Source: an uncultured Candidatus Saccharibacteria bacterium (GTDB lineage: Bacteria; Patescibacteriota; UBA1384; JACPKC01). Taken from it: a stretch of 64,000 nt of DNA. Position numbers and translations under genes: made by a program. The notes beneath the pieces were generated by a model. It had not been told where the DNA came from, searched no databases, and was given only the letters and a program-made list of their open reading frames with translations. The stretch's first letter is position 1; each line of letters starts with the position of its first letter. This document shows positions 4,145-53,970 of the stretch, piece by piece. The DNA is taken from the NCBI GenBank assembly GCA_964423885.1, contig CAYRGD010000003.1, positions 73,270 to 137,269 on the forward strand. The letters are read 5' to 3'.

Positions 4145-5185
4145 ATGCGCTATCTTGTCACCGGCGTCGCCGGGTTCATCGGATCGTTCGTCGCCGAATC
4201 CTTGCTCAGCCGGGGCGACCAGGTGGTCGGCCTCGACAACGTGAACGACTACTACGACGTCCGGCTGAAGCGCGACCGGCTCGGCCGCTTGCTTGCGCAC
4301 AAGACGTTCGAGTTCCGCGAGCTCGATATCGCCGACCGCCCGGCGATGGCGGCACTCTTCGCCGAGGAGCCGTTCGACGCCGTGATCCACCTTGCCGCCC
4401 AAGCCGGCGTCCGCTACTCGATCGAACGCCCGGACGCGTATATCGACAGCAATTTGGTCGGGTTCGGCACTATCCTTGAAGGCTGCCGCCATGGCAAGGT
4501 CAAGCACTTGGTGTACGCCTCATCGAGTTCGGTCTACGGCGCCAACACCAAGTTGCCGTTTTCGGAACACGATCCGGTCAACCATCCGCTCTCGCTCTAC
4601 GCGGCGACGAAGAAGGCGAACGAGCTCATGGCGCACTCGTACTCGCACCTCTACGGCCTGCCCACGACCGGGTTGCGGTTCTTCACGGTCTACGGGCCGT
4701 GGGGGCGGCCGGACATGGCCTTGTTCCTGTTCACGAAACGGATCCTGGCTGGCGAGCCGATCCAGGTGTTCAACGAAGGCAAGATGGTGAGAGATTTCAC
4801 GTTCGTGGACGATATAGTAGAAGGGATCATTCGGGTCGCTGATCGGCCGGCCGAAGGCGCTGGCCACTGGGACGGTGCTGCGCCGGATCCGGCCACAAGT
4901 AGCGCACCCTTCCGGGTGTTCAATATTGGGAACAGCACGCCGGTTGAACTCATGCGCTACATCCGAGCACTCGAGTCGTCGTTGGGTGTCGAGGCGAAAC
5001 TCGAACTCCTGCCGATGCAGCCCGGCGATGTCCCCGCGACTGCTGCCGACGTGAGCGAACTCGCCGCCTGGACCGGCTTCATTCCTACGACGTCGGTCGA
5101 GGACGGTATCGCGCGGTTCGTGTCGTGGTACACGCCGTACTTCGAGGCGCGGGCAGCCGAAGAGCGGCAAGCGGTATCGGCATGA
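4145..5185 (+). CDS. NAD-dependent nucleotide-sugar epimerase/dehydratase (UDP-GlcA/UDP-GlcNAc 4-epimerase-like)
   Basis: Start at [14 protein letters not shown] (Rossmann GxxGxxG). Contains the YASSSSVYG and YAATK catalytic motif of extended SDR epimerases. GAGGGAG SD upstream. Confidence 0.85.
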
Positions 5186-38913: not shown

Positions 38914-38974
38914 ATCTCCAGGGTATTCTCAATGCTGAACCGGTTTGGTACAGTACCCGCGTTCAATCCGATAT

Positions 38975-39049
38975 TCCCGGATAGCTCAACGGCAGAGCAA
39001 CTCGCTGTTAACGAGTAGGTTGCTGGTTCGAATCCAGCTCCGGGAGCCA
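38975..39049 (+). tRNA. tRNA-Asn (anticodon GTT)
   Basis: Acceptor TCCCGGA/TCCGGGA. D-arm GCTCAACGGCAGAGC. Anticodon loop CTGTTAA. T-loop GGTTCGAATCC. CCA encoded. Confidence 0.85.
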
Positions 39050-39053
39050 ACAC

Positions 39054-39078
39054 AAAAACCCCCAACATTGGGGTTTTT
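39054..39078. terminator. Bidirectional rho-independent terminator (AAAAACCCC–loop–GGGGTTTTT)
   Basis: Read directly from the sequence. Lies immediately 3' of tRNA-Asn. Confidence 0.7.
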
Positions 39079-39145
39079 GTTGAATTTTGACTATTGTGAG
39101 GGAGGGGTATGATCTATATGAGCAGGTTCTAAATTACGGAGGGCT

Positions 39146-40894
39146 ATGTCCAAACTCAATGTAGACCAAAAAACCATACATGATTTGCTAACAGATAAGA
39201 AAGCAGATTTCCTAATACCAGATTATCAGAGACCTTATGCGTGGGATGAAGACCAGTGCCAAACGCTGTGGGACGATATAACGGCTTTCGCATTTCCCAA
39301 TAATGACCACACCCAATTCGATAAAAACGAAGAATATTTTCTTGGCTCTATCGTTACCTTTAAGAATGAAAATAGGCAGCTTGAGGTTATTGACGGTCAG
39401 CAACGCCTAACTACGCTGATGCTTATCTTGAGGGCATTCTACGATAGATTCGCTAATGCACAGGATCCTAATTCTACATCGACCAGAGCAATGATCGAAA
39501 AGTGTCTGTGGAGAATTGATGAATTTGGCCGCGTAGACAAGGATACGCTCAAGATCAACTCGGAAGTTGCTACAGACCATGACAAGGACGAGTTTTTAGA
39601 ATTATTGCGCAGCGGACAATCTGCAACAGGAAAAAGTCAGTACGCAAAAAATTACGATTTCTTTAAACAAAAGATTAATGAACTAGCTGAAAACGCGATC
39701 CCCAACTTCCCGTATCTGCCCGCCCGCATCCTTGGTAACTGTATTTTGTTACCAATTGAGGCTGAGTCACAAGATACGGCGCTAAGGATATTCTCGACCC
39801 TCAATGATCGTGGTTTGCCACTTTCTGACGCCGACATTTTCAAGGCGCAATTCTATAAATACTTTAATGATAAAAGCCAAAACCAAAAGGACGAGTTTAT
39901 TGAGGATTGGAAGAACCTAGAAGATGTAACGAGTAAGATTTTCCACCCAAATACTGGCACGCCGATGGACGAACTCTTTACTCGTTATATGTACTACTTG
40001 CGTGCCAAAGAAGGCAATAAGAATACTACAGTAGAGGCTCTGCGCAAGTTTTACGAGCGGGGTAAATATAAATATCTCAAGGAAGACAATACCATTGAAA
40101 ACCTAAAGTCTCTGGCACTTTTTTGGGAAAATGTGGCACGACAAAATGAAGAAATATTTTCGGAAGATGTCCTTAAAAAGTTGTTTATTTTGAACTATGC
40201 ACCTAATGGCATGTGGCAATATATGACATCAGTATATTTCCTGCAAAACAAGAATGATGACGAAACACTGGATGAGACACCATTTGTAGATTTTCTCGAT
40301 AAGATCACTGCTTTCATTTTTGCCTACGCGATAACTAGCCCAGGTGTAAATGCGTTAAGAACGCCTGTATTTGATGAAATGATTAATATCATCAATGGTA
40401 TTGATGTTAGTTTCTCTGGTCGTAAGTTCAACCCGCACCAGGCAAGGTCGTTTTTTGATAACTACAAGTTCACCAATGGTCGCCCAATAACGCGCTCCAT
40501 CATTACATGGTATGCCTTCACTTTTAAAGGTCAGCCGTTGCTTGATATTGGCGAAACATTTCAGTTGGAACATATCTTCGCCAGAAAACGACAAGACATG
40601 GAAGGTGGACTCGTAAATGCAGCTAATCTCGAGTCGCTAGGCAATAAAATTTTACTCGAAGAAAGTATCAACATCAGGGCATCTGATTTCAGTTTTAAGG
40701 ATAAGAAAAAGATTTATAGCGGTGAGGGACGACGAGGTAGGAATCAAGAAAAAAGTAAAATAGCCGAAATTGAAAACATGATAGAGCGCACCAAGTTTGA
40801 TGAAAATGACATTGCTGAACGCAATAAGACTATTCTCGATAGATTCTTTGATTTCTTAGACAAAGAAAACTTACTGTCTGACTTAATAGATTAG
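39146..40894 (+). CDS. DUF262/DUF1524 two-domain nuclease (GmrSD/SspE/BrxU-like type IV restriction-type enzyme)
   Basis: N-terminal FLIPDYQRPYAW and DGQQRLTTL motifs (DUF262, a ParB-like NTPase). C-terminal QLEHIFARK…N…N region consistent with the DUF1524 His-Me finger. AT-rich codon usage. Confidence 0.75.
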   Translation: MSKLNVDQKTIHDLLTDKKADFLIPDYQRPYAWDEDQCQTLWDDITAFAFPNNDHTQFDKNEEYFLGSIVTFKNENRQLEVIDGQQRLTTLMLILRAFYDRFANAQDPNSTSTRAMIEKCLWRIDEFGRVDKDTLKINSEVATDHDKDEFLELLRSGQSATGKSQYAKNYDFFKQKINELAENAIPNFPYLPARILGNCILLPIEAESQDTALRIFSTLNDRGLPLSDADIFKAQFYKYFNDKSQNQKDEFIEDWKNLEDVTSKIFHPNTGTPMDELFTRYMYYLRAKEGNKNTTVEALRKFYERGKYKYLKEDNTIENLKSLALFWENVARQNEEIFSEDVLKKLFILNYAPNGMWQYMTSVYFLQNKNDDETLDETPFVDFLDKITAFIFAYAITSPGVNALRTPVFDEMINIINGIDVSFSGRKFNPHQARSFFDNYKFTNGRPITRSIITWYAFTFKGQPLLDIGETFQLEHIFARKRQDMEGGLVNAANLESLGNKILLEESINIRASDFSFKDKKKIYSGEGRRGRNQEKSKIAEIENMIERTKFDENDIAERNKTILDRFFDFLDKENLLSDLID

Positions 40895-40899
40895 AGGGC

Positions 40900-41361
40900 A
40901 TGCACGAGCCATATCTCACCTCATTCTTGCAAGGCAAATCTCCAGACCACCGAGGTCGCTTTCATCGCGACATCATCGCGTTCTCCAATAAGGAACTGGA
41001 GCAGTACCACGATTACATTCAGTGGATCTTCCCGCTCACCGAGAAAAGCGTGGCAATGTCGTGGACCCCTATTCTTGAGGATGTTGAAGTAATTCAACAG
41101 CTTAGAGCTGATAGAGCAGTTCTCGAAAATATGCGAGCTGCTTTGAGAGGGATGCAACGCTTTTATGCGGAAACAGACCATTGGTTACGACGCAACAACC
41201 ACAACCACCTTCGCATTGCCCGTATTCTCAAGTCAGCGGTGCTGTTAGGCCTTACAGAAGAAGCCGAACATTTTTACACGTTCATTCTTCATCGGCTTGG
41301 AGATAGTCAATCGGTAACAGATGAGAGCTTGGAATTTTGGAGGAATAGTATCGCTAAGTAG
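40900..41361 (+). CDS. OGFr_N-like domain protein (homolog of the opioid growth factor receptor conserved N-terminal region). Function unknown.
   Basis: The YHDYIQWIFPLTE and HNHLRIARILKSAVLLGLTE motifs match the HSYIQWLFPLRE and HNNLRITRILKSLGELGLE motifs of OGFR as recalled from memory. Starts 5 nt after the nuclease gene. Confidence 0.6.
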   Translation: MHEPYLTSFLQGKSPDHRGRFHRDIIAFSNKELEQYHDYIQWIFPLTEKSVAMSWTPILEDVEVIQQLRADRAVLENMRAALRGMQRFYAETDHWLRRNNHNHLRIARILKSAVLLGLTEEAEHFYTFILHRLGDSQSVTDESLEFWRNSIAK

Positions 41362-41383
41362 GGTATTGTCGGTCGGTGCGGAG

Positions 41384-41884
41384 CTAGTCTTTCGGAAGCG
41401 GGATGGGTTCGCTTGGATCGTCCGTCGGATGGGGCGATTCGTGCGGTGGGTGCATCATCCCTTTCGGTACGGGTATCGGACGACTTGGGTCGTCGATCCT
41501 AGGACGTGGTGCCGGCGTAGTGGTTTTCGGGATTGGTATAGGCTCGCTGAGGTCTGTATCGCTTGATTGCGGTGTGCCGGGCGCAGTGCGCAGTTGGCTG
41601 GGCAACGGGATTGGATCGCTCAGCTGCTCGACTCGGCGCGTCACGCCGGTTCTGGGTTTTGGGATCGGCTGATGACGTGCGTCATGGGGAGCGGCCTCTG
41701 CGCTGGCACTGCCACCAGTAAGGAGCGCTGCTGCGGCACCGATGCTGGTAATGAACCGGCGCCATGATGACGGCTCTCGGGCAGACTTTTCTGGCGTGAC
41801 CGGATCTGTCGATGCTGCGCGCTGATCCGCATCTTCGGGCGTGAATCCTTCGCGTTCACCCATGTATCCTCCTTTGTTTGACAA
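41384..41884 (-). CDS. Tat-signal secreted proline-rich repeat protein ([DESR]PIP[ILVK]P[KS] repeats)
   Basis: SWRRFITSIGAAAALL twin-arginine signal, then five copies of the PIPxPK/PIPLPS motif. 166 aa. Confidence 0.55.
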   Translation of the reverse strand: MSNKGGYMGEREGFTPEDADQRAASTDPVTPEKSAREPSSWRRFITSIGAAAALLTGGSASAEAAPHDARHQPIPKPRTGVTRRVEQLSDPIPLPSQLRTAPGTPQSSDTDLSEPIPIPKTTTPAPRPRIDDPSRPIPVPKGMMHPPHESPHPTDDPSEPIPLPKD

Positions 41885-41902
41885 TTATATCACCGACAAC
41901 GA

Positions 41903-43228
41903 TCATTTCCGGGTGAGTACGGCCAGTGTCTCGATGTGCGGCGTTTGTGGGAAGAAATCGAACGGCTGGATGGACGTTGGTTGGTACGTTGCCACAAGGA
42001 GCTTGAGGTCGCGGGCAAGTGTCGCCGGGTCGCAGGAGACGTAGGCGATACGCTCGGGCATATCGCGCAGCAGGGCGTCGATAACCTGCCGCTCCAGGCC
42101 GGTGCGGGGCGGGTCGACGATCACGGTCGTATCCGGCAGAAGTCGGTTGCGTACAAGGTAATTGGCAGCGGTCGAACCTACCGATATCGTGTCGCTCTCG
42201 CGGTCGAGCGCTGCGGCATTCCGCTTGGCATCGTCGATCGCCTGCCTGTGTGATTCCACGAGCGTGAGTGGTGTCGAGCTGCCGGCCGCGCCGAACCCCA
42301 TGAGTCCTACGCCGGCGTAGAGGTCGGTGATCCGAACGGATCCGGCCAACTGTTCCTGTAGTGCCGCCAGCAACAACTCCGCCGCTTCGACGTTGGCCTG
42401 GAAGAAACTCGTCGCGTCGTACGATAACCGGAGTGTCCCAACGCGCTCGGTCAGTACGCGGCTGCCCGCGAGCACCGTTGTCCGGTCGAACCGGGCCACC
42501 TGGTCACGCGCGTCGTTGGCCGACCAGACGATGCCGGTCACGGGCAATTCGTCGAAGTACCCGACAAGCGACGGGTCGGGCGCGATACCCGATGTCGCAA
42601 CCAGGTGGACCACCAGCTCGTTGCCGTGCACGCTGCGGCGGAAGATGACGTTCCGTAATCCTTCGCGGTTGCCGCGCGGCGACCAGATCGGATGGGATGC
42701 TGCATTGGCCCACGCGCTGATCCGCTCGAGCAGGCCGGCGGCGGATTCCCCGAACAACGCCGAGCCCTGGGCAGGGTCGATCTGGGTGTCGCTGCCAGGT
42801 AGAAGTGTGCCGAGTACGATGCCATCCTCGCGTTCGGCGAACGCGTAGGCGATACGGTTGCGGTAGCCCCATTCTTGCGGCGACGCGGTGATCGGACGGA
42901 TCGGGGTGTCAGTGAGGCCGCCGATCCTGCGTAAGGCGTCGCGTACGATCCGTTCCTTGGCGGCGAGCTGGGCGCCGTACGCGATGTGCGCCCAGGTCGC
43001 GCCGCCGAGCTGGGCAGCCGGAAACGGCGGCGGTACCCGGCTGGCCGATGGCTCAAGGATCTCTGTCGCCGTTCCGCGGGCCCAGCGGGCCGTTTCCTTG
43101 GTGAGCCTGACGCGCACATGTTCATTGGGTGCGCCGCCCGCTACGAACACGGCTCGGCCGTCGGGCAGACGGCCGATCGTGTCGCCGCCGGCAATGAGAT
43201 CGGTGGTACGGATATCGAGGTCGGGCAT
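41903..43228 (-). CDS. rlmD: 23S rRNA (uracil-5-)-methyltransferase RlmD/TrmA family (TRAM domain plus class I MTase)
   Basis: Start at the internal MPDLDIRTTDLIAGGDTIGRL (TRAM domain). C-terminal DLYAGVGLMGF motif I and the catalytic region of the m5U methyltransferases. The N-terminal extension in the ORF track was rejected. Confidence 0.8.
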   Translation of the reverse strand: MPDLDIRTTDLIAGGDTIGRLPDGRAVFVAGGAPNEHVRVRLTKETARWARGTATEILEPSASRVPPPFPAAQLGGATWAHIAYGAQLAAKERIVRDALRRIGGLTDTPIRPITASPQEWGYRNRIAYAFAEREDGIVLGTLLPGSDTQIDPAQGSALFGESAAGLLERISAWANAASHPIWSPRGNREGLRNVIFRRSVHGNELVVHLVATSGIAPDPSLVGYFDELPVTGIVWSANDARDQVARFDRTTVLAGSRVLTERVGTLRLSYDATSFFQANVEAAELLLAALQEQLAGSVRITDLYAGVGLMGFGAAGSSTPLTLVESHRQAIDDAKRNAAALDRESDTISVGSTAANYLVRNRLLPDTTVIVDPPRTGLERQVIDALLRDMPERIAYVSCDPATLARDLKLLVATYQPTSIQPFDFFPQTPHIETLAVLTRK

Positions 43229-49260: not shown

Positions 49261-52200
49261 TTGATGGCTGACGACCACGCCGCAGTACGCGGATCATCGC
49301 TGTCGCGCAAGCTGCGCGCATCGCGGACGTTGCTCCCGCAGCTCCAGGTACTCCACGACCGGTTGCTCGACCGCTCGTCCCTCTACAATAGCTGGCACTT
49401 GCAGCCGTACGCGCTGCCGTTGCACGGTGCGCTGTTGGTCGGTCTTGTCGCCTTCGGCGTGGCGGTCGTCTTCCAGTCCGTCGCGGTGGTACGGGCGGCC
49501 AACGCCTGCGAATCCGTAGCGACCGGCAACTGGACGAACCCGGCCACGTGGACCAGTTGCGGCGGCACGGTTCCCGGCGCCGCCGATACCGTCACGATCC
49601 AATCGGGCCACACCGTGACCGTGGACGACGACGCGGCCGCGTCGAGCGTGGTTATTACCGCGAACAATACGGCCGGCGGCAACGGGATCACGATCGCGGC
49701 GGGCAAGACCTTAGCGGTAACAGGCGCGGTCACGATTACCGCCCCTACGATGAACACCACGAACGGGACGCTCGCAGTGGGCAGCGGATCGCTCATGGCC
49801 GGCAGCATCGCGATCGGGGGCGCTACCACAAACCGCATCGGCCAGCTGACCCTGTCAACGGGTACGGTGACGACAACCGGCAGCGTGACGTTCACCGGCA
49901 CAGCCGCTTCGGCGCGATTCATCTCGACCGGCGCAAGCACGGCCAATATCAGCGGGGATTTCGGATCCGGCGGCACGGTGACGACAAGCGGCACCGGCAC
50001 AATCCGGTTCACGGGCAACGCAGCGCAGTCCATCGGCGCCTATACCACCTATAACAATCTTGAGGTCGCCAGTACCGGCGGCAGCGTCTCGTTCCTGGGT
50101 ACGGCCACGATCGGCGGCACGCTCACGGTCAGTTCGGGGACGCTCGATATTGCCGGCGTCACCACCGTCGTGACCGGCGCGACGCTCATCCAGGGTACGT
50201 TGCAGGTGAGTAATACGGCAGGCAACAAGACGTTCGGCGACATCACTGTCGCCAACGGCGGCACGGTGAGCTTCACCGCGGCCGAGGCGATCGCCATGAA
50301 CGGCAACCTGGCGGTCAACGGCGCCGGGGCGATTACCGGCACGACCGGTCTCTGGACCTTCCAACGCGCCGGGGGCGGTACAATTTCAGGGTCGGCAACC
50401 GCGGTGACGCTTACGAGTGCGACCTTCACGACCGACTACGCGGTCTCGATCCCGTTCAGCGTCCCGACGATCACCGTTACCGGCGTGACGCTCACGAACA
50501 ACAGCACGGTCACGGCTGCCACTGCGCTGTCGGGAACCGGTTCGTTCATCCAGGGAACCAATGCGACGCTCAATCTCGGCGGTACGTCGGCGATCACGGC
50601 GCTCACCGCCACGGCCAGCCCGAACACAGTCCAGTATGTGAGTACGACGGGTGCGCAGACGCTCAAGGGCATTGCCTATCACCACCTTGTCGTGGCCAAG
50701 TCGGCCCAGATCGGCACGCTCGGCGGGGCCGTGACCGTCAACGGCAACCTCGCGGTCAGCTCCGGGAGCCTGAACGACGGCGGGTTCCAGATCACGGGGA
50801 ACGCCACCGGCACGCTGACGGTCGCATCCGGCGCGACGCTGCGGCTGGGGACAACCGCTGCCAGCACCGCCTTCCCCACCGGCTTCGTCGGCGCCAATAT
50901 CTCGCTGCCAGCAGGTTCGACCGTGGTCTACAACTCGAACCCGGCGCAAACGATCGCGGTACCGGTCGCGTACGCGAACCTGTCATTGGTCGCGACAGCC
51001 GCGAGTACGAAGACGCTGGCCGGGCCGCTGACGGTCAACGGCACCCTCAACGTCGGGTCGAACAACACCCTGGCCGATGCCGGCAACCTTGTCACCGCCA
51101 AGGAGAATATCGTGATGACCGGGGCCTATACCGGCACCAATAAAGTATTGCTCACCGGCAGCGCGTCGGGCCATACCCTGACTGGCACAGGCAGTTACGC
51201 CGCCATCGAGCTCGACGACAGCAACGGCGCTTCGCACGCGACCGCGCTCACGGTCACCGGCCCGTTGACGCTCACGGCCGGCACCTGGACGGCCTCGAAT
51301 ACGTTGAGCGTCGGCGGCGCCACGACGATCAACGGCACGCTCGCGATCGCGTCGACGACCGGCACCAAGACGTTCGCGGCGGTCACTGTCGCCTCGGGCG
51401 GCACGCTGCGCTTTACCGCCGCCGAAGCGCTGGACGGCAGTGGCACGCTCACTGTCGCATCGGGCGGCACGGTCGATTTCGTTGCGGCCGGCATCATCAA
51501 TCTTGCCGCCGATTTCGCGATCAACGGCACGGGCGCGCTTACGGGTACGAGCGGCACCTGGACCTTCTCGAAGCCCGGTGGCACCGGCACGATCGGCGGA
51601 TCGGTGTCGTCGTTGACGTTCCCGGGCAACGTATCCTTCACGACGAGCTATACAGTAGCCTACCCGTTGACCGTGAACGGCATGGCTGTCGGCGCCAGCG
51701 CAGCCATTAGCAACCCGTCGACGATGACCGTGAACGGGACGCTGTCCGGCACCGGCACCTTCATCCAAGGGATCGGCACGGTACTCAATGTACGGTCGGT
51801 CAGCATCACGAACCTGGGAGCGAGTGCGACTGGCAACATAGTCCGCTACATCGACGGCGGCGGAACCGTGAAGGGCACGACGTACAACGATCTTGAGATC
51901 GCCGAGACGCCCGGGGCGACCGCCTCGGCCCAGGGCACCCTGGTGGTGCTCGGCAACCTCGTGGCTACCTCGGGCATCCTGAACCCGGCCGGCAGCACAT
52001 TTACCGTCATGGGCTCGACCGACATCTACGAGGCGATCCGCGACGTGAGCGGCGGCGGATCCGGCGGCAACAATACCTTCGAGGGGCCGGTCACCGTCCA
52101 TCCTGGCGCCGACTGGATCGGGATTCCGGGCGAGGTGGTCGATTACCACTTCAAGAACGGGTTGACGATGAACGGCAACAGCTTCGTCGCCGGGTCGGGC

Positions 52201-53970
52201 ACCTACTTCTTCGAAGGCAACGACCAGACGCTTGCGGGTTCGCTCACGGCGGACTTCCGGATCATGCAGGTGGACGGCATCACGCTTGCGGCCAGTACCG
52301 GCTTCGATATCAGCAATACGCTCACGCTGGCATCCGGTGCGCGGATCGTGCCGGATCCGGCGGCAGCCATCAACGGCTCGACGCAGCAAGGCACATTGAC
52401 GGGCAACGGCAGTGTGGACGTGACCCGCACCGCCGCGACCGCGGATTTTGCGAGCCAGTACAATTTCTCGGTCAATGTCCTGACGGGCGTCGAGGTCCGC
52501 TACGTCGGCACGGCGGCCCAGGTGCTGAGCTCCGCGCCATACGTAGACGTCACGATCGATAACCCGTCCGGCGTCACGCTGCCGGCCGACGTTACAGTGG
52601 GCGGTACGCTCGCGCTCACGCATGGCCTGGTCGCGACCGGGGCGAGCCGCCTGATCATGGGCAGCAGCGGTTCGGTCGCCAGGACCGACGGGTACGTCGT
52701 CGGCCGGTTCCAGAAAGCGGTGCCGACCGGTGCGCCGGCACTCACCTTCGAGATCGGCGACGCGACGCAGTACGCGCCGCTCGATATCGCGTTCACGGGC
52801 GTGACCTCGTCCGGCGATCTGCTCGCAAGCGTCACGTCCGCCGACCATCCAGATATCGCCAATTCGGGCCTGGCGTACAACAAGAGCGTCAACCGGTACT
52901 GGACGATGGAGCAGATCGGCCTTGTCTTCGGCAGCTACGATGCCACCTTCCACTTCGTGTCGAGCGACCTTGATCCCGGCACCGACATGGCCTCGCTCGC
53001 CGTCGCAAAGAAGGACGCATCATGGACGTTGCCTGCGCCCGGTATCCGCACCGCGACCAGTACCCAGGCTACCGGCATGACGGACTTCAGTGACTACGTA
53101 CTCGGCAAGGCCGGGTCCGACCAGGCGCCTGTAGCCAGCGCGGTGACGGTGTCGGGCAGTACTGCGCTCGGCAGCACATTGCTCGGCGGCTACACCTATA
53201 CGGATGCCGAGGGCGACCTTGAGGGTACAAGCACGTTCCGCTGGCTGCGCAACGGCACGCCGATCCCCGGCGCGACCGCAGCTACCTACGTGATTACGGC
53301 CGACGACCTGGGTGCGACCCTGACGTTCGAAGTGACGCCGGTTGCACAAAGCGGAACGACGCCCGGCCTGCCGGCAGTGAGCGCAGGATTCTCGGTGCCG
53401 GTGCCGTCTGATGGCAGTAGTGAGGATGGGGATACTGGGAATGATACCGGTGGTACCGTCGAGGATAATGCTGGGACGGACGACAACGACTCCTCGACGC
53501 ATAGTGCCAGTACGTCCAATCGGCCGCAGTCGGGAACCAGCCTCGTGCAACCAGGCAGCCTGCTGCTACCATTGCTGCCGCCCGTGAACTTCATGGCGGA
53601 TACGGCCAAGAGCTTAGCAGGCCAACCGTTCATACTATTGCTCCTGCTATCGCTCTGCTGCCTCGTGCTCTACCGCTGGCCCTGGATCCTGGCCTGGCTC
53701 CACGACGACCTCTATGTCGGTCGGCTCGACCGGTCGCTGGAGGTTGAGGATGTGAAGACCTTGTTCGACGCGGCTGGTACCGTCGACTCGGTCCGCGTGC
53801 ACGACCGGCCGACCCACCGGAACCTGCGGTACGCGTTCGTCCGGATGCGGACCGACGCCCAAGCGCGGAAAGCGATGAAGACCTTGCATGGCAAAGACGT
53901 CCGCGGCCATGCGCTCACCGTCCGGCGTGTCCGTGATCTCTGGAGGCCGCACGATGACGCGAACCGCTGA
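49261..53970 (+). CDS. Giant (1569 aa) repeat-rich surface protein with an N-terminal signal anchor, Thr/Gly/Ser/Ala-rich beta-helix-like repeats, a C-terminal TM helix and a C-terminal RRM-like domain
   Basis: Uninterrupted 4.7 kb ORF with a TAAGGAGAGGG SD. Repetitive GTxTxTG segments. The C-terminal ~120 aa comprise a hydrophobic helix (FILLLLLSLCCLVLY) and then LYVGRL…LRYAFVRM (RNP2/RNP1-like). Confidence 0.7.
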   Translation: MMADDHAAVRGSSLSRKLRASRTLLPQLQVLHDRLLDRSSLYNSWHLQPYALPLHGALLVGLVAFGVAVVFQSVAVVRAANACESVATGNWTNPATWTSCGGTVPGAADTVTIQSGHTVTVDDDAAASSVVITANNTAGGNGITIAAGKTLAVTGAVTITAPTMNTTNGTLAVGSGSLMAGSIAIGGATTNRIGQLTLSTGTVTTTGSVTFTGTAASARFISTGASTANISGDFGSGGTVTTSGTGTIRFTGNAAQSIGAYTTYNNLEVASTGGSVSFLGTATIGGTLTVSSGTLDIAGVTTVVTGATLIQGTLQVSNTAGNKTFGDITVANGGTVSFTAAEAIAMNGNLAVNGAGAITGTTGLWTFQRAGGGTISGSATAVTLTSATFTTDYAVSIPFSVPTITVTGVTLTNNSTVTAATALSGTGSFIQGTNATLNLGGTSAITALTATASPNTVQYVSTTGAQTLKGIAYHHLVVAKSAQIGTLGGAVTVNGNLAVSSGSLNDGGFQITGNATGTLTVASGATLRLGTTAASTAFPTGFVGANISLPAGSTVVYNSNPAQTIAVPVAYANLSLVATAASTKTLAGPLTVNGTLNVGSNNTLADAGNLVTAKENIVMTGAYTGTNKVLLTGSASGHTLTGTGSYAAIELDDSNGASHATALTVTGPLTLTAGTWTASNTLSVGGATTINGTLAIASTTGTKTFAAVTVASGGTLRFTAAEALDGSGTLTVASGGTVDFVAAGIINLAADFAINGTGALTGTSGTWTFSKPGGTGTIGGSVSSLTFPGNVSFTTSYTVAYPLTVNGMAVGASAAISNPSTMTVNGTLSGTGTFIQGIGTVLNVRSVSITNLGASATGNIVRYIDGGGTVKGTTYNDLEIAETPGATASAQGTLVVLGNLVATSGILNPAGSTFTVMGSTDIYEAIRDVSGGGSGGNNTFEGPVTVHPGADWIGIPGEVVDYHFKNGLTMNGNSFVAGSGTYFFEGNDQTLAGSLTADFRIMQVDGITLAASTGFDISNTLTLASGARIVPDPAAAINGSTQQGTLTGNGSVDVTRTAATADFASQYNFSVNVLTGVEVRYVGTAAQVLSSAPYVDVTIDNPSGVTLPADVTVGGTLALTHGLVATGASRLIMGSSGSVARTDGYVVGRFQKAVPTGAPALTFEIGDATQYAPLDIAFTGVTSSGDLLASVTSADHPDIANSGLAYNKSVNRYWTMEQIGLVFGSYDATFHFVSSDLDPGTDMASLAVAKKDASWTLPAPGIRTATSTQATGMTDFSDYVLGKAGSDQAPVASAVTVSGSTALGSTLLGGYTYTDAEGDLEGTSTFRWLRNGTPIPGATAATYVITADDLGATLTFEVTPVAQSGTTPGLPAVSAGFSVPVPSDGSSEDGDTGNDTGGTVEDNAGTDDNDSSTHSASTSNRPQSGTSLVQPGSLLLPLLPPVNFMADTAKSLAGQPFILLLLLSLCCLVLYRWPWILAWLHDDLYVGRLDRSLEVEDVKTLFDAAGTVDSVRVHDRPTHRNLRYAFVRMRTDAQARKAMKTLHGKDVRGHALTVRRVRDLWRPHDDANR

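Follow-up and report, generated by a model that had tools for sequence, protein, structure and literature searches.

Between a tRNA-Asn(GTT) gene and a convergent host gene, the 64-kb window (the whole stretch of DNA that was analysed) contains a GC-poor segment of approximately 2.3 kb, hereafter the islet, which has room for two open reading frames only, ORF1 and ORF2. The features of the locus are as follows.

38975-39049, + strand: tRNA-Asn(GTT) gene (ARAGORN; Rfam RF00005, 71 bits, E 1e-14), the left landmark and presumably a host gene
39052-39089, + strand: terminator-like hairpin (39052-39080) and T-run (terminator scan, inverted repeat I7), with an 11-bp stem, ACAAAAACCCC/GGGGTTTTTGT, and a 7-nt loop
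39087-39113, + strand: candidate sigma-70-like promoter of a two-gene transcript, TTGACT, 15 nt, TATGAT (picked out by eye)
39138-39143, + strand: Shine-Dalgarno-like GGAGGG, 2 nt before the ATG of ORF1 (read from the sequence)
39146-40894, + strand: ORF1, 582 aa, putative single-chain GmrSD-like type IV restriction endonuclease (Pfam, PADLOC and PDB matches)
40895-40899, + strand: 5-nt spacer AGGGC; GAGGG (40894-40898) overlaps the ORF1 stop codon
40900-41361, + strand: ORF2, 153 aa, all-alpha protein of the OGFr_N family (Pfam OGFr_N, E 5e-14)
41362-41383, no strand: right junction, 22 nt from the ORF2 stop to the stop of the convergent gene, with no tRNA-end repeat inside
41384-41884, convergent: GC-rich host gene for a Tat-signal proline-rich repeat protein

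The AT-rich terminator-like hairpin (39052-39080) may already belong to the imported DNA, and we place the left junction of the islet somewhere in 39050-39090. The candidate promoter was not reported by the promoter scan because its spacer is short. Because the terminator scan found no terminator between ORF1 and ORF2, the two genes are probably co-transcribed, and they are possibly also translationally coupled. A search against Rfam found no non-coding RNA at the locus besides tRNA-Asn.

Composition and surroundings of the islet

The islet is compositionally foreign DNA. Its GC content is 41.5% (39050-41370), compared with 63.7% in the remainder of the window. Among segments of 2,321 bp (mean 63.8%, sd 2.6%), the minimum elsewhere is 57.3%; the islet falls short of the mean by about 8.6 sd, and no other strong compositional anomaly occurs in the 64 kb. 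The GC contents of the ORF1 and ORF2 genes are 40% and 47%, respectively, and their GC3 values are 0.43 and 0.51, versus 0.77-0.90 in six host genes. A preliminary description of this DNA had reported a low-GC islet in a GC-rich host, and both base composition and codon usage bear this out. It had also noted two co-oriented genes 5 nt apart and an islet ending about 20 bp before the next host gene, in agreement with the AGGGC spacer and the 22 nt measured at the right junction. Two other statements hold in part. The proteins were said to be rich in Lys and Asn, which is true of ORF1 (Lys, Asn and Ile; FYMINK 0.34) but not of ORF2 (FYMINK 0.22). The composition was said to switch immediately after tRNA-Asn and its terminator; the segment does abut the 3′ end of the tRNA gene, but the GC content already sags about 100 bp upstream of that gene, in the intergenic promoter region. 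The flanking host genes are intact, with GC contents of 61-71%, and both junctions lie in short intergenic spacers. The neighbouring genes are of the housekeeping kind, encoding RpoD, Lgt, lipoamide dehydrogenase (Lpd), YjeF_N, RlmD and a glycosyltransferase (GT2).

How might this segment have been acquired? In abutting the 3′ end of a tRNA gene, in its foreign composition and in its putative defence cargo, it resembles tRNA-linked genomic (defence) islands. Unlike these islands, however, it has neither an integrase nor an att-like direct repeat, and it holds two genes only. No integrase or transposase gene is found between about 28 and 54 kb, and an alignment of the tRNA 3′ half and the hairpin to 39100-42100, on both strands, gave no repeat of the tRNA 3′ end (best local alignment 10-11, versus a shuffle mean of 11.75 and a maximum of 18). 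The preliminary description had seen neither an integrase nor such a repeat, and on this point we concur. The repeats present at the islet are 10-11 nt long and at chance level only. An 11-nt near-repeat, AGGGTATT(C/G)TC, at 38920 and 41360, which brackets the tRNA gene and the islet, was rejected as one of 15 similar chance families. Of the long contigs with RlmD homologues, the two best (65% and 61% identity) showed no synteny and no tRNA gene near RlmD. Because no empty site was found, we infer the insertion from composition alone, and its route is likewise a matter of deduction; a decayed island is a possible origin. A shared vehicle, such as a transposon or cassette, was also considered and rejected, in that the 300-nt flanks of GmrSD homologue loci (81 upstream, 77 downstream) have no nucleotide similarity to the flanks in the window; the search gave no transposon or cassette ends common to these loci. 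In an unrelated low-GC contig (L087), a GmrSD gene with 60% identity lies 440 bp 3′ of a tRNA-Asn(GTT) gene.

ORF1, a GmrSD-like protein, and its relatives

The initial assignment of ORF1 as a DUF262/DUF1524 nuclease is upheld by its matches to Pfam GmrSD_N (formerly DUF262; E 8e-42, residues 11-236) and GmrSD_C (formerly DUF1524; E 2e-6, 28.2 bits against a cutoff of 23, residues 466-564). From the N to the C terminus, the protein consists of a ParB/DUF262 NTPase domain, a helical linker and a DUF1524 His-Me finger. DGQQR at residues 83-87 is invariant in our alignment (A2), as are E475, H476, N500 and N509. The DUF262 protein 9jfl_B is matched in the PDB (1e-10). Among the PADLOC models, ORF1 matches Orf5 (1e-42) and HEC-06 (PDLC04154; E 8e-39, residues 3-561, profile positions 6-554 of 569) with moderate scores of about 130-145 bits, that for Orf5 being slightly above that for HEC-06. 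Judged from its sequence, in which the DGQQR and EH motifs are both intact, ORF1 belongs to the GmrSD-like type IV restriction enzymes and forms a single chain.

A GmrSD-family type IV enzyme is expected to depend on modified DNA for cleavage, for example DNA containing glucosyl-hmC, and to protect against phages. Other GmrSD-like nucleases are BrxU, which is associated with BREX, and SspE, which senses phosphorothioates. Both share the DUF262 NTPase domain with ORF1. The PADLOC SspE models, however, match only the N-terminal domain of ORF1 (about 120-170 residues) and miss its C-terminal half, SspE in the PDB is matched with an E value of only 0.004, and no BREX, Ssp or Dnd genes lie near ORF1.

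The closer likeness is to HEC-06, GmrSD and Eco94GmrSD, type IV enzymes that, like ORF1, carry DUF262, a helical linker and DUF1524 on a single chain of about 570-580 aa. HEC-06 is a GmrSD-like protein that has been validated as a single-gene defence, and its protection is abolished by the substitutions Q79A and R80A, in the second Q and the R of DGQQR, or E471A and H472A, in EH (Payne et al. 2024 preprint, bioRxiv 10.1101/2024.01.29.577857). These residues have counterparts at almost equal positions in ORF1, Q86/R87 and E475/H476, and, as given above, the HEC-06 model aligns with residues 3-561 of ORF1. Both types are often embedded in or located beside type I restriction-modification (R-M) systems and on mobile DNA. 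In contrast, the match of ORF1 to the HEC-06 model is only moderate (about 130 bits), and the setting of ORF1 is a very small islet beside a tRNA gene, not an Hma or R-M operon.

Approximately 7,900 homologues of ORF1 were found, and relatives with about 70% identity occur across phyla, in Gammaproteobacteria, the Candidate Phyla Radiation and cyanobacteria. The mean gene GC content of this clade is 34%, and in hosts of 52-60% GC its genes stand out as sharply bounded low-GC islets of a single gene. Their neighbours vary, including hsdR-like genes, hsdM, tyrosine recombinases and NYN proteins. The nearest relatives (76% identity) either precede a type I R-M operon or adjoin an unrelated 161-aa protein, the latter on a contig from the sequencing run that also yielded the organism of the window. 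The ORF1 clade is thus a promiscuous low-GC gene.

ORF2 and the OGFr_N family

ORF2, which the preliminary description had called OGFr_N-like and without a known role in defence, is a true member of that family (E 5e-14, 52.7 bits against a Pfam cutoff of 22), and the second half of the statement also agrees with our searches: PADLOC has no OGFr_N model, and the literature searched (defence, phage, jumbo phage, ARH, ADP-ribose) contained nothing on a prokaryotic or viral role for OGFr_N/PF04664. We found 52 homologues of ORF2. All 19 invariant columns of our family alignment (A1) are present in ORF2, and the family-invariant residues include D16, R20, E34, H37, Q41, W42, P45, S50, H101, N102, R105, R108 and W147. 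The AF2 model of ORF2 has a pLDDT of 92; no solved structural relative of OGFr_N was found. Because the invariant His, Asp, Asn and Arg residues look catalytic, we infer that ORF2 may well be an enzyme. The N-terminal domain of the eukaryotic opioid growth factor receptor (OGFr/OGFRL1; PF04664) shares the family-invariant residues with ORF2, which passes the Pfam threshold for this domain; unlike eukaryotic OGFr, ORF2 is a bare 150-aa core that lacks the C-terminal repeats. The name ‘receptor’ is uninformative with regard to the bacterial role, and domain fusions and gene neighbours rather suggest an enzyme of ADP-ribose/NAD metabolism.

A profile search gave 5,213 cluster representatives of OGFr_N, mostly stand-alone in architecture, from bacteria, jumbo phages, giant viruses and megaplasmids. 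Two members are fused to an ADP-ribosylglycohydrolase (ARH), and one of these is 43% identical to ORF2. OGFr_N genes adjoin those for SIR2 (locus L127) and NUDIX (loci L133 and L120), an ARH gene lies 4.6 kb from OGFr_N in L120, and NADAR and Deltex-C domains occur among the 136 ORFs nearest to OGFr_N genes. Because the family is fused to ADP-ribosylglycohydrolase and located beside SIR2 and NUDIX in phages, ORF2 may belong to an NAD+/ADP-ribose network. These links consist of a handful of fusions and neighbours, mostly of distant members in large viruses that have many NAD-related genes anyway. All-against-all clustering gave no recurrent neighbour family of OGFr_N, and many members lie amid ordinary chromosomal genes, such as those for FKBP/rhodanese, IMPDH-like proteins and peptidases.

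The subclade of ORF2 is found in a different setting. A relative with 67% identity adjoins DUF4238 and a serine recombinase, and one with 47% identity is the last gene of a type I R-M/PDC-S11-like nuclease operon, within an element that also has a serine recombinase; one close relative overlaps the preceding gene by 4 nt. Counting ORF2 itself beside GmrSD, all three members with context are thus located on mobile or defence DNA next to nuclease or defence genes. Because all three sit beside nucleases, OGFr_N could be a portable accessory to nucleases in general.

Interpretations of the two-gene islet

We consider it fairly probable that the locus is a minimal acquired defence islet, in which a stand-alone nuclease is accompanied by independent cargo, a gene that possibly belongs to an NAD/ADP-ribose network. 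According to this explanation, about 2.3 kb of low-GC DNA would have been inserted between tRNA-Asn and the convergent gene of a poorly sampled host of about 64% GC. Its functional core would be ORF1, a GmrSD-like type IV restriction enzyme that works as a single polypeptide. By analogy with those members of the family that have been characterised, the DUF262 domain would bind and hydrolyse NTP via DGQQR, and the DUF1524 His-Me finger (E475/H476) would cut incoming DNA that carries base modifications of the phage type; such modification-dependent cleavage by ORF1 is proposed on the strength of the same analogy. Because unmodified host DNA would be spared, neither a methylase nor a partner protein would be needed. 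ORF2 would be independent cargo, probably co-transcribed, and not a dedicated partner of the nuclease; its family is large and its members usually stand alone, and its closest subclade appears to travel on mobile or defence DNA beside different nucleases.

A more specific proposal can only be put forward tentatively, namely that OGFr_N is an enzyme of NAD+/ADP-ribose conflict networks, and that the ORF2 subclade is a new stand-alone or accessory anti-phage (or anti-counter-defence) gene; the eukaryotic domain would then be a catalytic module inherited from such systems. A slightly less likely view is that ORF2 is an independent conflict gene that either defends by itself or counteracts ADP-ribosylation or NAD manipulation by phages, and that is stacked beside the nuclease and uncoupled from it. 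Each of the three subclade contexts involves a different system, and the occurrence of the family in jumbo phages and giant viruses, the ARH fusions and the SIR2 and NUDIX neighbours would fit this view; against it, the contexts number only three, many family members are surrounded by ordinary chromosomal genes, and support from PADLOC is lacking. This reading overlaps with that of an islet with independent cargo and differs from it only by giving ORF2 a defence phenotype.

Do the two genes belong together? The preliminary description took their tight spacing as a sign of a two-component module, and it named non-co-occurrence beforehand as refuting. Non-co-occurrence is what we found. Of 86 loci that encode GmrSD relatives with 57-76% identity, none has an OGFr_N gene (at least 600 bp of downstream sequence is present at 58 of the first 84), and a GmrSD gene is present in none of 59 OGFr_N contexts. 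These counts show that there is no conserved ORF1-ORF2 pairing. Accordingly, we regard it as improbable that ORF1 and ORF2 together constitute a new anti-phage module of two components in which the OGFr_N protein acts as a sensor, regulator or co-effector of the GmrSD nuclease. The two genes, both of them foreign, do have the look of a functional operon, since they share one orientation and are separated by 5 nt without a terminator; the nearest relatives of ORF2 directly adjoin nuclease or defence genes, one of them with the 4-nt overlap; and a unique pairing would by itself be compatible with a lineage-specific functional link. However, the GmrSD clade maintains about 70% identity across phyla in the absence of OGFr_N, HEC-06-type proteins defend alone (bioRxiv 10.1101/2024.01.29.577857), OGFr_N is without a PADLOC model, and the two genes themselves differ in GC content (40% versus 47%) and GC3 (0.43 versus 0.51). 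That the islet is an assembly or binning chimera, or that the tRNA gene and the low-GC segment are ancestral, is very improbable: the source genome is uncultured and unannotated, no empty site was found for comparison, and the relative with a 65% identical RlmD has a genome of 44% GC, which shows that GC content varies in the host lineage, but a Logan contig from a separate assembly (SRR12712864) has identical junctions and runs unbroken from host genes through tRNA-Asn and the two ORFs to 124 bp into the host gene on the right, the junctions lie in short spacers between intact host genes of 61-71% GC, and the gap in GC3 to all six host genes compared is 0.3-0.4.

The islet itself appears routine, a mobile type IV restriction gene beside a tRNA gene and not a new two-gene immune system. 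The ORF1 clade shows how far a low-GC nuclease travels, often as an insert of one gene whose compositional boundaries are sharp. The passenger of interest is OGFr_N, a family of about 5,200 clusters with strictly conserved, catalytic-looking residues that is also found in defence islands. If OGFr_N is an ADP-ribose-processing enzyme, it would be an added component of the NAD-centred arms race between phages and bacteria, and a testable hypothesis would be at hand for a human protein domain that is poorly understood.

Composition and origin of the islet

The preliminary description had noted a low-GC segment directly 3′ of the tRNA-Asn gene, and this observation was confirmed. The GC content is 41.5% in the islet (39050-41370) versus 63.7% in the remainder of the window, the lowest value among other 2,321-bp windows of the 64 kb is 57.3%, and a 1-kb GC profile of the whole 64 kb contains no second compositional anomaly. 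Likewise, GC3 is 0.43 for the GmrSD-like nuclease gene (ORF1) and 0.51 for the OGFr_N-family gene (ORF2), versus 0.77-0.90 for six flanking host genes. The features are arranged as follows.

38975-39049, tRNA-Asn(GTT)
39052-39089, hairpin and T-run directly after tRNA-Asn
39146-40894, ORF1, 582 aa
40900-41361, ORF2, 153 aa
41384-41884 (-), convergent GC-rich host gene

The two ORFs are separated by 5 nt, and 22 nt lie between the end of ORF2 and the stop codon of the convergent gene. An assembly chimera at the islet is unlikely, because one separately assembled Logan contig (SRR12712864) runs from the same host genes through the tRNA and the two ORFs into 124 bp of the right flank. The 166-aa product of the convergent gene, which has no Pfam match, carries the twin-arginine signal SWRRFITSIGAAAALL together with repeated (D/E)PIP(L/I/V)PK motifs; the Logan contig breaks off inside this gene, probably because of the repeats. 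Elsewhere in the window (49261-53970, +), a 1,569-aa ORF combines an AIR9-type Ig domain with an RRM_1 RNA-recognition motif at its C terminus (E 8e-12), a domain combination that is unusual among bacterial proteins.

How might the islet have arrived? Horizontal transfer is well supported. As the preliminary description had reported, integrase genes are absent (about 10 kb was covered on each side) and the tRNA-Asn end is not repeated near the islet; other repeats there are short and at chance level. An 11-nt near-repeat, AGGGTATT(C/G)TC, at 38920-38930 and 41360-41370 would bracket tRNA-Asn and the islet, but 14 other families of short repeats in this 2.9-kb region were statistically indistinguishable from it. 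A search for an empty site through the nearby host gene RlmD yielded none: in this thinly sampled host lineage the best RlmD homologues are 61-65% identical, and their contigs have no synteny with the window. By RlmD similarity the closest relative (L154, JGI Ga0376277_0005752; 65% identity) has a genome of 44% GC versus 64% here, so GC content differs greatly among members of this poorly sampled lineage. An SLFN_AlbA_2 and HATPase_c_4 protein that matches pAgo-associated PADLOC models is encoded downstream of that RlmD. A decayed integrase island is a possible origin, and we suggest that homology-facilitated illegitimate recombination, with the tRNA gene as its anchor, is another.

The nuclease as a mobile single gene

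Both domain assignments of the preliminary description were borne out by Pfam, with GmrSD_N (DUF262; E 8e-42) and GmrSD_C (DUF1524; above the Pfam threshold) in ORF1 and OGFr_N in ORF2 (52.7 bits; cutoff 22). ORF1 also matches the PADLOC Orf5 models (1e-42) and, across nearly its full length, the HEC-06 models (8e-39); SspE models match its N-terminal domain only, and the nearest solved chain is the DUF262 protein 9jfl_B (1e-10). In the preprint in which HEC-06 was defined, it is reported to be protective as a single gene, and its protection is abolished by mutation of the last two residues of DGQQR (Q79A, R80A) or of the EH pair (E471A, H472A) (10.1101/2024.01.29.577857). Both of these mutation-sensitive motifs are intact in ORF1, with DGQQR of the NTPase at residues 83-87 and EH of the nuclease at E475-H476, and are invariant in 30 close homologues.

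Identity within the ORF1 clade stays at about 70% across Chromatiaceae, Pectobacterium, Vibrio, Prochlorothrix, Anaerolineae, Bacteroidales, Desulfobacterales and Moraniibacteria, and its genes have a mean GC content of 34% irrespective of the host. Where the host genome has 52-60% GC (L030, L032, L033, L050 and L054), they form sharp-edged low-GC inserts that scarcely exceed the length of the gene; a single gene has moved cleanly there, with neither shared flanking sequence nor an obvious vehicle. Because the flanks of the homologue loci have no nucleotide similarity to those of the window, no common vehicle is visible. The neighbours of the clade include hsdR-like helicases (8 loci), tyrosine recombinases (6), hsdM (5) and NYN proteins (5), a mixture in keeping with published accounts, in which GmrSD-like genes are embedded in other systems. 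The closest known relative (76%; Logan SRR12712864_74495) stems from the sequencing run that also covers the organism of the window, but lies on a 35% GC contig, consistent with a low-GC community member as donor pool.

In the region L087:4485-6743 of an unrelated metagenomic contig of roughly 35% GC, a 60% identical homologue also stands on the 3′ side of a tRNA-Asn(GTT) gene, 440 bp away and in the same orientation; convergent genes for Hypoth_Ymh and a type I restriction R subunit come after it. Within the spacer, at about 4776-4808 (gaacaacggac...tccgtatgtc), the anticodon arm of the tRNA is repeated in degenerate form. Two tRNA-Asn-linked cases of this nuclease are suggestive and no more.

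Pairing of the nuclease with OGFr_N

The preliminary description had proposed that the two genes act together, for example as a two-component anti-phage or anti-MGE module, and had named a lack of co-occurrence elsewhere as refuting this. We searched from both sides. With a profile of 33 OGFr_N sequences, no OGFr_N gene was found in 86 nuclease loci (4 genomic and 80 metagenomic, with relatives 57-73% identical to ORF1, plus the two closest known relatives at 76%; at least 600 bp of downstream sequence in 58 of the first 84). One of the 76% relatives lies upstream of hsdR-hsdM-hsdS; next after the second comes a 161-aa protein that is unrelated. Conversely, no GmrSD gene was present in 13 genomic or metagenomic and 46 viral OGFr_N contexts, where all-against-all clustering of neighbours revealed no recurrent partner family. 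The pairing is thus absent from both sides, the outcome that the preliminary description had named as refuting, and the two-component module is not supported.

Three ORF2 homologues are more than 45% identical, two of them with usable context. Downstream of the first (67%) are an unknown 154-aa gene, a DUF4238 gene and a gene for a large serine recombinase. The second (47%; in L003:6405-8462) closes an operon and overlaps the gene before it, which encodes 161 aa, by 4 nt. The gene order in this operon is hsdM, hsdS, two unknown genes, hsdR, PDC-S11/NucS_C-like nuclease, 161-aa gene and OGFr_N, and the surrounding element also encodes a serine recombinase and a Toprim protein. This arrangement at the end of a type I R-M operon may itself be an embedded candidate system. 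All three contexts, the window included, are on mobile, low-GC DNA beside different nucleases, which fits ORF2 as a defence-island cargo gene and speaks against a GmrSD-specific partner. More distant members lie among ordinary chromosomal genes or in a phage replication module.

The OGFr_N family

ORF2 has no match in PADLOC or NCBIfam. A profile search of 1.84 billion representatives recovered 5,213 OGFr_N clusters, the majority stand-alone proteins of 145-185 aa, and the family extends to jumbo-phage-sized and giant-virus contigs, Xanthomonas and Stenotrophomonas jumbo phages, a 595-kb megaphage and megaplasmids. Its invariant residues (D16, R20, E34, H37, Q41, W42, P45, S50, H101, N102, R105, R108 and W147) look like those of an active site rather than a scaffold. 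The AF2 model of ORF2 is confident (pLDDT 92) and all-alpha; Foldseek against the PDB gave no informative solved relative (best E 0.25), PDB sequence and profile searches were empty, and the sole viral structural match was a Marseillevirus 'OGFr'.

Two representatives are fused to an ADP-ribosylglycohydrolase (ARH; E 5e-56 and 7e-61), and the OGFr_N part of one is 43% identical to ORF2, with only three known homologues closer; another representative carries an ACT domain. On three viral contigs of 208-461 kb, SIR2 immediately follows OGFr_N (L127:6001-7499) or NUDIX immediately precedes it (L133:123-1427 and L120:455-6549, the latter with an ARH gene 4.6 kb upstream), and these may represent a phage NAD/ADP-ribose module. 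NADAR and Deltex-C domains occur among the 136 nearest ORFs. Taken together, these clues suggest a place for OGFr_N in the NAD+/ADP-ribose network; as most of the contexts are those of distant family members, we regard this reading as possible but less likely than not.

The locus is best read as a stand-alone GmrSD/HEC-06-like type IV restriction islet of a known kind, in which ORF2 is a hitch-hiking member of an uncharacterised, widespread family. The remaining interest lies in the OGFr_N family itself, rather than in its pairing with the nuclease.
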